Shown one piece after another: positions 25,037 through 26,509 of a DNA stretch of 32,000 nt. The stretch comes from Ignicoccus pacificus DSM 13166. GTDB taxonomy: Archaea > Thermoproteota > Thermoprotei_A > Sulfolobales > Ignicoccaceae. The stretch's first letter is position 1, and each line of letters starts with the position of its first letter. Position numbers and translations under genes: made by a program. The notes under the pieces are model-generated. The model saw nothing but the letters and a program-made list of their open reading frames with translations, was not told the origin of the DNA and did no database searches. The stretch lies in contig CP006868.1 of NCBI GenBank assembly GCA_025340205.1, positions 1,290,001-1,322,000 on the forward strand, written 5' to 3'.

Positions 25037-26509
25037 TCAGGTTCCTATCTCTGATGCCTTTTCGAAGTTCTTTAAGTCAAAGGATCCCTCCGACTCCATA
25101 AGCTTTAGCATCCTGAGAGAAGCTATCAACGCGTCTGGGCTTCTCCCCTTGACGCTAATCAAGTTGCCGTAGCTCATTGGGAGGGGGTCGTCTCCCCCTA
25201 GTCCCACCACCACTACGCTCTTCCACTTATCTAAGTTGTTAACATAGTTCAAGGCCGGAATAGAATTCATCTCATTGGCCTCAGAGGTTAGCACGACTAG
25301 CACCTTATCCTTTGACGCGTACTTAGCGCTGAACTCTTCCATGGCGTCCAGAGTTCCCGGCTTCTCTCCTAACGGTAGAAGCTCTTCCGAATATAGGGCA
25401 GTCCAGAACTCGAGACCCGCTTCCGTCGATGAGAGAACCTCGTCGTCCAGCATTAGGGAGTCTTCGCTTTTTGAGAAAAGGTATATCGTTCCCTTGGGCC
25501 TTAGAAAGAGCCCCATTTCCGCTAAGATCTTATGGCGTTTAAACGCCTGATCGCTCATATCGAGAAGCAAGACCACTTCGTCCTCATCGAAGCCCAAAAT
25601 GTCGTAGAGTCTCTCGCTTTTCTCCAAAAGAGCGTTCCAGAAGAGCCACCTGGAAACCTTCCCATACCCTTGAGCGCTCAAGCCAAGAACTGCCCTAGCA
25701 AGGGAATAAGCGGCGACCCTCTCCTTAAGCTTCTCCCGGAGGAGGTCTATCGCTACGTCCTCTCCCAATGTCCTTACCACCGTGCTTAGCTGTGCAAGTA
25801 CGTCGAAGGGTGACATAGTATTTGCAAATAGCTTGAAGAGGTCTTTTTCCGATAACCTGTTCAATATTGCCTCTAGGGATATGTTGGATCTCACGACCGA
25901 CCAGGGAAGAGGGGTTTCCAAAGCTATTTCCAACGCTCTTTCGAAAGAGCTGTCCTTCCATTTCATGAAACTTTCATAGGATTGGATTAAAGGATTTGAT
26001 GAGGTACCCCTTCCTACGACCCACCCCCATATTCCCCTTAGCTCTTCGGATGGGGGAGGGGGGTGAACCAGCTTCAGCACGTCCCTCATCTTCTTCTTAC
26101 TCTTCACCGATTGAAAGGCGTTCCACTCCTCGCCGCCCTCACTAAGGGCCTTCGCCAACGCTCCCTTCTTCCTCCTCCCAAGTCCGCTCATGGTATCTAG
26201 CTCTCTACTCATGGAGAGAAATCTGCGGTAGTATCCTATCGGCTGGTTCAAGAAGAAGAGGCTCAAATGCTCCCTTCCAAAAACGTCGCTAGCCAAGAGA
26301 GGAGGGTCCTTGATCAGTCCTACGTTCCTAGCGATGGTTGACATGAGGAACGTCTTCTCCGGATCCTTTCGATAGGCTAGCCTGACGACCGCTAGAAAGT
26401 CTATTAGAAATTGATCATCTGAGAGCACATCTAAGGAGGTAAGCAGATATTGTGCAAGCCGCTCTTGTAACGGCTTGGCAGAGAGGTAAAGGGACAACTG
26501 CGTTCCCAA
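25037..26509 (-). CDS. TROVE-domain + von Willebrand A-like protein (Ro60/Rsr-like RNA-binding protein)
   Basis: In this 490-aa ORF, GRRKKGALAKAL...KKMRDVLKLVHPPPPSEELRGIWGWVVGRG resembles the conserved Ro60 TROVE segment (human GRALRKAIADW...[13 protein letters not shown], recalled from memory). PLPWSVVRSNISLEAILNRL is also present. The C-terminal part has vWA-like strands: VVLLLDMSDQA (degenerate MIDAS) and VLVVLTSEANEMN. Confidence 0.65.
   Translation of the reverse strand: MGTQLSLYLSAKPLQERLAQYLLTSLDVLSDDQFLIDFLAVVRLAYRKDPEKTFLMSTIARNVGLIKDPPLLASDVFGREHLSLFFLNQPIGYYRRFLSMSRELDTMSGLGRRKKGALAKALSEGGEEWNAFQSVKSKKKMRDVLKLVHPPPPSEELRGIWGWVVGRGTSSNPLIQSYESFMKWKDSSFERALEIALETPLPWSVVRSNISLEAILNRLSEKDLFKLFANTMSPFDVLAQLSTVVRTLGEDVAIDLLREKLKERVAAYSLARAVLGLSAQGYGKVSRWLFWNALLEKSERLYDILGFDEDEVVLLLDMSDQAFKRHKILAEMGLFLRPKGTIYLFSKSEDSLMLDDEVLSSTEAGLEFWTALYSEELLPLGEKPGTLDAMEEFSAKYASKDKVLVVLTSEANEMNSIPALNYVNNLDKWKSVVVVGLGGDDPLPMSYGNLISVKGRSPDALIASLRMLKLMESEGSFDLKNFEKASEIGT

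Follow-up and report, generated by a model that had tools for sequence, protein, structure and literature searches.

The stretch of DNA analysed here (the window, 32,000 nucleotides; contig CP006868.1, positions 1,290,001 to 1,322,000) comes from Ignicoccus pacificus DSM 13166, a hyperthermophilic archaeon (Thermoproteota, Desulfurococcales), so the hyperthermophilic archaeal genome recognized in an initial annotation of the letters was correctly identified. On the minus strand an open reading frame (ORF) at 25037-26509 starts with TTG and encodes a Ro60-like protein of 490 amino acids with TROVE and vWA domains; it is identical to IPA_07665, which is annotated as 'hypothetical protein'. On the plus strand, divergent from IPA_07665 and 72 nt from its start, a candidate Y-RNA-like small RNA (sRNA) gene of 76 nt occupies positions 26582-26657 (from stem strand S1 to its partner S1'), 43 nt before the start codon of cbf5. 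Research on Ro60/Y-RNA particles treats them as machines of RNA surveillance and as a major autoantigen in humans, and they are characterised in animals, in some bacteria and in phages. The best explanation of the locus, which we regard as rather likely, is that a diverged member of the Ro60/Rsr family and the linked sRNA act as a Ro-type ribonucleoprotein (RNP).

The frame had been proposed without mention of its strand, and it proved to be real. The GenBank product of IPA_07665 has 463 amino acids, its start being set 27 codons downstream of the TTG at 26509; this start is probably 27 codons too short, because a TATAAA box, read from the sequence at 26530-26535 of the minus strand, stands about 24 nt upstream of the TTG and because the alignments of the homologs cover the first 27 residues of the ORF. 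According to standard archaeal promoter geometry the position of this box fits a leaderless mRNA beginning at the TTG, and a longer N-terminus is ruled out by an in-frame TAA seven codons upstream of it. All the peptides quoted in the initial annotation (GRRKKGALAKAL...KKMRDVLKLVHPPPPSEELRGIWGWVVGRG, VVLLLDMSDQA and VLVVLTSEANE) could be located in the protein; the TROVE-like segment is present as described, but the spacer between GRRKKGALAKAL and KKMRD is 16 residues long and not 22.

The family of IPA_07665 is rare and nearly all of its members originate from metagenomes: exhaustive phmmer searching found 34 cluster representatives (50% identity clusters) in 1.84 billion, mostly 460-540 amino acids in length. 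The best non-self identity was 30-34%, no protein above 34% identity was found, and a word-indexed search for homologs, queried with the family alignment, yielded just the two proteins that were already known. In a phyletic survey carried out by pattern-based retrieval the named carriers were I. pacificus and two Acidilobaceae metagenome-assembled genomes. The archaeal rarity that had been anticipated agrees with these numbers, yet TROVE proteins had already been noted in Asgard viruses and Borgs. Pfam TROVE (PF05731) and vWA_Ro60 (PF25045) recognise only four of the 32 relatives (P0032-35), which are the most distant ones and the weakest phmmer matches of IPA_07665, reached directly at E 5.7e-6 to 9.5e-4. 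Thirteen other members are seen by Pfam only as generic vWA proteins (the models being VWA_CoxE, VWA_2 and VWA), and Pfam TROVE detects none of the 28 archaeal-type members. Stray matches among the relatives were phrog_850 ('RNA-binding protein') in two of ten and the PADLOC model mad4 at 6e-4 in one of ten; PADLOC had no match for IPA_07665 and nothing meaningful among its relatives.

In order to avoid circularity, the family alignment and profile (A2) were built from the 28 members without a Pfam-TROVE match, P0032-35 being left out. The best match of A2 in the PDB was the Ro60 of Thermus phage phiLo (9KOP/9L5Y, E 9e-27), and Deinococcus Rsr (2NVO) was matched at E 3.8e-22 in one stretch, from position 25 to 475 of the profile and from 35 to 528 of the chain; human Ro60 (9NEN) and Xenopus Ro60 (1YVP) were found at E 1.9e-14 and 3.7e-14, respectively. 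The N-terminal half of the profile by itself still matched the phage Ro60 at E 1.6e-11. Isolated vWA domains in the PDB were also matched, far lower than Ro60/Rsr. The Ro60/Rsr-type TROVE and vWA identity put forward in the initial annotation is therefore upheld by a profile that is free of Pfam-TROVE members and matches solved Ro60/Rsr chains, and the family profile together with the structure model supports the view that IPA_07665 is a true but very divergent Ro60/Rsr homolog.

The structure was predicted with AlphaFold2, template-free, on A2 (predicted local distance difference test, pLDDT, 85; predicted template modelling score, pTM, 0.86), and the model bears out the proposed layout of a helical N-terminal part (amino acids 1-305) followed by an alpha/beta C-terminal part (amino acids 312-472). 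Residues 1-305 (25595-26509, minus strand) make up an all-helical HEAT-like/TROVE module, in which DSSP assigned about 22 helices and pLDDT is mostly above 90 for residues 40-290; in sequence, profile and fold this module aligns to the HEAT ring of Ro60/Rsr. The vWA domain extends over residues 306-472 (25094-25594, minus strand), with strands alternating with helices and an alpha/beta arrangement over 312-472. A superposition on Ro60 had been suggested as a check, and the ten best Foldseek matches in the PDB were all Ro60/Rsr rings, with about 500 aligned columns, template modelling (TM) scores of 0.57-0.64 and root-mean-square deviations (rmsd) of mostly 5.5-6.4 A; lone vWA domains came next at TM of about 0.2. 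In a viral fold library the top matches were a phage 'Ro-like RNA binding protein' and TROVE proteins. The rmsd between model and Ro60 is normal for the family, since the known Ro60 structures differ by 5.8 and 6.5 A among themselves (PMC12135203).

The most conserved block of the family is the TROVE core motif, residues 111-170 in IPA_07665 (26000-26179, minus strand), which reads GRRKK...QSVKS...MRDVLKLVHPPPP...IWGWVVGRG, with the family consensus QAxKY....RDLLRLxHPKP...IWGW. It aligns to the GRALRKAIADW... segment of human Ro60, which contains K170, R174 and H187, and within it ..K..RDVLKLVHPPP of IPA_07665 falls on the block containing K170 and H187. RNA binding by human Ro60, on its platform and in its cavity, requires these three residues; in 2006 Fuchs and colleagues reportedly described the function of H187. 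Counted along the alignment, His149-Pro150 (26060-26065, minus strand) corresponds to human His187-Leu188 (HLKP of ...RLSHLKP), and equivalents of H149 and of P150 are each found in 26 of the 27 other members, with a gap in the remaining one. The position of K136 is K or R in 26/27 others and R142 recurs in 21/27; K136, R142, H149, P150, P202 and R207 are all conserved positions that IPA_07665 has retained. The KY....RD block carries a 4-residue deletion relative to human Ro60, on account of which the equivalent of R174 is uncertain.

The vWA domain of IPA_07665 is different in this respect. Five residues of the MIDAS (metal-ion-dependent adhesion site) do not vary among the other 27 members, namely the D and both S of LxDxSGSM, the T of GGTPL and the D of TDEQEN. 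In IPA_07665 the first motif, D-x-S-G-S-M in the family, is degenerate (D317-M-S319-D-Q321 within VVLLLDMSDQA; 25547-25561, minus strand): Q321 replaces the last serine (S321Q) and an alanine the invariant methionine next to it. The strand and MIDAS-Asp position, L-x-V-x-T-D-E-Q-E-N in the family, reads VLVVLTSEANE (residues 403-413; 25271-25303, minus strand), where S409 stands for the aspartate (D409S) and the flanking Q, E and N are replaced too. Finally, K383 occupies the column of the MIDAS threonine, while T386 is found three residues on in the same loop. The initial annotation, which had supposed an altered metal site from the S321Q exchange, was right but understated the case, as D409S and the displaced or lost threonine have to be added. 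Whatever function the metal site of the vWA domain has elsewhere in the family, I. pacificus has probably lost or altered it, while its sRNA gene and the features facing the RNA are intact; the loss of the MIDAS suggests either that the RNA-related function does not require the metal site or that the I. pacificus copy is in decay.

Turning to the RNA, the copies of the sRNA, each folded singly, share one architecture: stem S1 of about 7-9 bp, an asymmetric internal loop, stem S2 of about 7-10 bp, a single-stranded UUCAGCG and one or more apical hairpins, the 5' side of the internal loop being Y-G-Y-Y-C and its 3' side pyrimidine-rich and ending in UU. In the window (all on the plus strand) the 5' strand of S1, GGGCGAGG (26582-26589), pairs with CCUCGCCC (26650-26657), and the 5' strand of S2, GCCGGGC (26594-26600), pairs with GCCCGGU (26638-26644), both according to fold and covariation. 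Between the two 5' strands lies the loop sequence CGCC (26590-26593, the Y-G-Y-Y-C of the family consensus), and the 3' half (26638-26657) consists of S2', the pyrimidine-rich loop CCUUC (26645-26649) and S1'. UUCAGCG (26602-26608) at the top of S2 is near-invariant, its seven positions agreeing in 24, 23, 24, 24, 22, 24 and 19 of 24 copies, respectively, and the last two positions of the 3' internal loop are U in 22/24 and 17/24 copies. The apical hairpin module (26609-26637) varies from 14 to 50 nt among loci and is not conserved in sequence. The fold of the window copy has -47.8 kcal/mol (z -2.9), which none of 200 shuffles equalled.

The transcribed strand of the sRNA is fixed by two features, a promoter on the sense strand and an excess of G.U over A.C in the S1/S2 helices (9 versus 1). 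A promoter with a transcription factor B recognition element (BRE) and a TATA box, typically AAAGGTTTATAAGG, is located at -24 to -32 in 20 of the 24 copies on the sense strand, versus 5/24 at scattered positions on the antisense strand; in the window a BRE-like AAAAA and the TATA box TTTATA (26554-26559) are found at 26549-26559, the box 23-28 nt upstream of S1. Moreover, all four arrangements of gene and RNA occur, the sRNA being upstream or downstream and on either strand, and therefore it is an independent gene and not an untranslated region.

In 22 of the 27 loci the sRNA accompanies the protein gene, the remaining neighbours varying from one locus to another. Its distance to the protein gene is 35-208 nt in 21 of the 24 aligned copies and 658-770 nt in the other three. 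A covariance model (CM) built from eight copies, R1, gave 12 hits in 134 kb (both strands), four of them outside the training set and all 35-214 nt from the protein gene; the window sRNA scores 57.7 bits with it. When 14 further metagenome loci were fetched through the protein alone, sRNA hits were obtained in 10, and an eleventh locus (L022) has a clear copy on inspection. Five of these further loci (L016, L017, L020, L024 and L026, of which L016 and L020 appear to be near-duplicates of one sequence) contain two tandem copies, as does L010; the tandem copies are separated by about 40-60 nt, have a promoter each and differ in their apical modules. In about 185 kb of flanking sequence no sRNA copy was found elsewhere.

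RNAalifold recovered only 10 pairs from a plain MAFFT alignment of the RNA copies, which was too poor for it; the covariation counts were taken from alignments fitted to the structure, a circumstance addressed by shuffled, slid and held-out controls. The nested-helix score of 12 copies was reached by 0-4 of 300 dinucleotide shuffles each, with the motif held fixed. In a structural alignment of 10 copies, from which the window and L006 copies were left out as held-out tests, 166/166 cells were paired and 13 of 20 pairs were changed on both sides, which 0/500 shuffles equalled, and pairing fell to 50-63% when the partners were slid by 1-3 columns. With 24 copies, 92% of the cells are paired and 17/20 pairs are compensatory, the covariation being 0.49 versus 0.13 in shuffled alignments (0/500 as high) and the pairing in slid controls 50-56%. 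A second model, R2, made without the window and L006, recovered both as its best non-training hits, the window copy at 24.3 bits.

Known RNA classes were also compared with the sRNA. Readings as a K-turn, C/D box or H/ACA RNA were rejected (no GA/AG tandem, no RUGAUGA/CUGA boxes, no ACA box), and so was a strict T-loop reading of UUCAG, in which position 5 is G and not A. One of the two tandem copies of L010 (4590-4688, plus strand), and this copy only, has an apical hairpin, GGGGUUCGAAUCCCC, with the canonical sequence of a tRNA T-arm. In L027 a tRNA-Tyr/Ile/Arg cluster (1692-1942, minus strand) follows the most distant TROVE-like gene (29% identity) at about 220 nt on its downstream side; the sRNA model cross-hits the T-arm of the tRNA-Ile in this cluster weakly (14 bits), and therefore the S2 and UUCA module bears a weak likeness to a T-arm in its 5' half.

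As regards the surroundings of the two genes, tRNA-Val(GAC) (24918-24994) is indeed on the same strand as IPA_07665 (minus), downstream of it as had been claimed, but 42 nt from its stop codon and not 43. As a conserved partner or tRNA-like Y RNA this tRNA was rejected: tRNAs occur in only one of 25 related loci scanned, L027, where they form the three-tRNA cluster beside the most distant family member. The linkage to cbf5 was discarded likewise, as cbf5 adjoins the RNA in the window only. From the RNA-biology neighbourhood proposed in the initial annotation, the structured RNA candidate upstream is conserved, but the adjacency of tRNA-Val and cbf5 is not. The protein-coding neighbours vary by locus (TsaD, ThyX/NrdD, UbiA, dCTP deaminase, an AAA ATPase and others), and the recurring feature across loci is an intergenic gap holding a GC-rich element of about 65-100 nt. 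An integrated element at tRNA-Val was considered and dismissed, no att-like direct repeat of the tRNA flanking the gene.

Further away, a PaREP1/PaREP8 family gene (22105-22635, minus strand) lies about 2.3 kb from tRNA-Val. An ORF of 74 amino acids at 24197-24421 is followed by one of 71 amino acids at 24606-24821 (both plus strand), the latter matching only the C-terminal half of a PIN domain (profile positions 67-116); the pair probably represents a VapC-type toxin gene that is disrupted or has a wrongly set start. Another PIN gene, which is complete, is located at 29184-29543. The PIN and PaREP1/PaREP8 genes give the region a somewhat accessory flavour. At the other end of the window, positions 1-4000 have 53-56% G+C, versus about 44-49% over most of the window; GC and AT skew are positive there, two long ORFs (554-2701 and 2748-4109) occupy the plus strand, and Rfam gave no match, rRNA included, in these 4 kb.

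Compared with known systems, the archaeal family has the same two-module layout, a HEAT-like helical ring and a vWA domain, as Ro60/Rsr of Deinococcus (2NVO), Xenopus (1YVP/1YVR/2I91) and human (9NEN); its conserved K..R..L.HP(K)P block aligns with the human block from K170 to H187, and a MIDAS is present in the family. It differs by its signature TDEQEN, in contrast to TDNET, by the degenerate MIDAS of IPA_07665 and by its hyperthermophilic crenarchaeal host. The phage protein phiRo60 (phage phiLo; 9KOP, 9L5Y) is both the best profile match and the best fold match of the archaeal family, comes from a thermophilic setting as well and has the DVSGSM, GGT and TDEQ motifs in common with it. In bacteria and phages the genes for Y RNAs are neighbours of the Ro60 gene and often number two (PMC4201824; PMC12135203), and in phiLo the genes of two Y-like RNAs, Yrl1 and Yrl2, adjoin the phiRo60 gene and have a CGAA motif in a large internal bulge (PMC12135203). 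Similarly, a small-RNA gene adjoins the protein gene in the archaeal loci, in five of them in tandem as in phiLo, whereas the archaeal RNAs carry UUCAGCG instead of CGAA and are found in chromosomal and not in phage contexts.

In bacterial and phage Y RNAs the ends pair into an interrupted stem with the Ro-binding motif on its 5' strand, and a variable module tethers an effector such as PNPase (PMC4201824; PMC12135203; PMC8058203). The archaeal sRNA resembles YrlA/YrlB and Yrn1 (bacterial, about 70-120 nt) in its size, its end-pairing, its loop-interrupted stem, its motif on the 5' strand and its variable module in the place of the effector module; the tandem copies are analogous to those of YrlA/YrlB and the T-arm hairpin of L010 recalls the tRNA-like module of YrlA. 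Unlike the YrlA subfamily, however, the archaeal sRNA has no general tRNA-like domain, the T-arm-like hairpin being restricted to that copy, and its conserved elements are the YGYYC / ...YUU asymmetric loop and UUCAGCG. TROVE and vWA proteins have also been noted in Asgard viruses (Nidhogg) and in Borg elements. These are detectable by Pfam, viral or extrachromosomal (with Asgard and Methanoperedens hosts) and described with no partner RNA, whereas Pfam misses the family described here, which is located on chromosomes of Thermoproteota.

Several observations weigh against a functional Ro-type RNP in I. pacificus, and it is necessary to consider them together with the alternatives to which they point. 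As a single sequence IPA_07665 had no match in Pfam (TROVE and vWA included), NCBIfam or PDB sequences even at E<=10, the Pfam search suggested in the initial annotation returning zero families at this threshold, and PHROGs gave no match either. A generic vWA protein with an unrelated helical N-terminal domain (e.g. CoxE/BatA-like), its likeness to Ro60 being an artefact of profile or model, would account for the missing Pfam match, for the thirteen members that match VWA_CoxE and not vWA_Ro60, and for the identity of only 12-15% between IPA_07665 and the Ro60 structures. Nevertheless we consider it extremely improbable: the Rsr profile match spans both domains, the N-terminal half finds the phage Ro60 without the help of the vWA part, and the full-length fold matches are exclusive to Ro60 although the model was template-free. 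Another difficulty is that IPA_07665 is the most aberrant member of its family. At least two of the five MIDAS ligands, all present in the rest of the family, are lost; the N-terminal FHxRR..EGFxKPY segment of the homologs, about 30 residues, is absent; the vWA part was modelled with less confidence (pLDDT 55-89, versus >90 in the HEAT part), and it is by the superposition scores that the model is judged to be a HEAT-like ring closed by the vWA domain. In addition, a close ortholog appears to be absent from other sequenced Ignicoccus species. A loss of function in I. pacificus is thus possible, and the gene could be a decaying relic, either a non-functional Ro60 homolog or an RNA binder without vWA activity, for which S321Q, D409S, the displaced threonine, the replacement of M, Q, E and N against the invariant residues of the other 27 members, the shorter N-terminus and the low identity to the nearest relatives all speak. 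We hold this to be unlikely, since the frame of 490 codons is intact with a well-placed TATA box, the residues on the RNA side are retained, and the sRNA gene keeps its promoter, both stems and UUCAGCG; moreover, the role of the MIDAS in Ro60 is unclear anyway (PMC12135203).

Other doubts concern the RNA and the origin of the module. On the basis of gene linkage and general architecture the sRNA is probably a 'Y RNA'-like partner of the Ro60-like protein. It contains, however, neither of the known Ro-binding motifs, GGUCCGA with a bulged C in animals and GNCGAAN0-1G / CGAA in bacteria and phage (PMC4201824; PMC12135203), and Rfam recognised only tRNAs at gathering score in the window, nothing in seven loci, and no Y RNA or other family at 26582-26657 even at E<=10. 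No sRNA was detected in five of the 27 loci, of which L023 and L025 have a gene truncated at the end of the contig, L012 has only 59 nt of contig ahead of the gene, L013 is a contig of 2.4 kb and L027 is the 29%-identity outlier. Furthermore, no TATA-like box is present in 26658-26700 (plus strand), between the 3' end of the sRNA and the GTG of cbf5 (26701-27759), so in I. pacificus the transcription of cbf5 may begin at the sRNA promoter and read through to the gene, or a cbf5 leader may be processed to give the sRNA. The absence of such a box, the lack of a known motif and of an Rfam match, and the RNA of L008, which also directly precedes a gene, would agree with a Ro60-like protein whose adjacent GC-rich RNA is not its ligand but an unrelated sRNA or a cis element, e.g. 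a leader of cbf5. This reading is improbable in our judgement, because the linkage in 22/27 loci persists with differing neighbours, in four arrangements and with an own promoter, while cbf5 is adjacent in the window only and about 185 kb of flanking sequence holds no further copy. It is equally improbable that the module derives from a mobile element or virus and acts in conflict, like the Ro60/Yrl of phage phiLo, which may hijack the PNPase of its host. The nearest solved relative is indeed the Thermus phage Ro60 with TDEQ in common, TROVE is known from Asgard viruses and Borgs, the distribution is patchy, and tRNA, PIN and PaREP1 genes are nearby in the window; but a search of 2.9 million viral contigs gave no family member, the chromosomal neighbours are ordinary, a tRNA-derived direct repeat is missing and PADLOC gave no meaningful match.

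If the preferred reading, a Ro60/Rsr family protein acting with its linked sRNA, is followed, the protein would form a Ro-type ring and would bind the sRNA through the stem, loop and UUCAGCG module, as Ro60 binds the conserved stem of Y RNA. The central cavity, lined by the invariant His-Pro, would accept the single-stranded 3' ends of misfolded or damaged RNAs, and the RNP might serve RNA surveillance at high temperature. More speculatively, the variable apical module could tether the ring to an effector. Archaea, the hyperthermophilic crenarchaea included, are not known to possess PNPase, and for this reason the PNPase-like archaeal exosome would be the obvious candidate. We give about even chances to the wider proposal that hyperthermophilic Thermoproteota possess a chromosomal Ro60/Y-RNA system which has been missed by standard domain and RNA-family searches, with a Ro60 subfamily invisible to Pfam and a new class of Y-like RNA that would be recognised by another module (YGYYC loop and UUCAGCG) and may couple the ring to the exosome in place of PNPase.

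The literature searched contained nothing on a cellular archaeal Ro60, on an archaeal Y RNA or on either of them in Crenarchaeota/Thermoproteota; that Ro60 is present in all three domains is asserted in one paper, which gives no detail. What is new here is a probable archaeal branch of the Ro60/Y-RNA system that is invisible to Pfam and Rfam, and an sRNA that was previously undescribed. The working covariance model and the protein profile are provided for a systematic survey. If the interpretation is true, it would supply the missing archaeal branch of the Ro60 family, and the third domain of life, too, would have a cellular Ro RNP. It would also mean that the Ro60 family is under-detected by Pfam and Rfam, for Pfam because none of the archaeal-type members reaches TROVE. 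The proteins would be very thermostable and the RNAs GC-rich, which would suit them to structural work, and the question would be raised to what a Y-like RNA tethers Ro in cells that have an exosome but no PNPase. Finally, since I. pacificus has lost the MIDAS and its 27 relatives keep it, the family would offer a natural experiment on the unexplained role of this site in Ro60.

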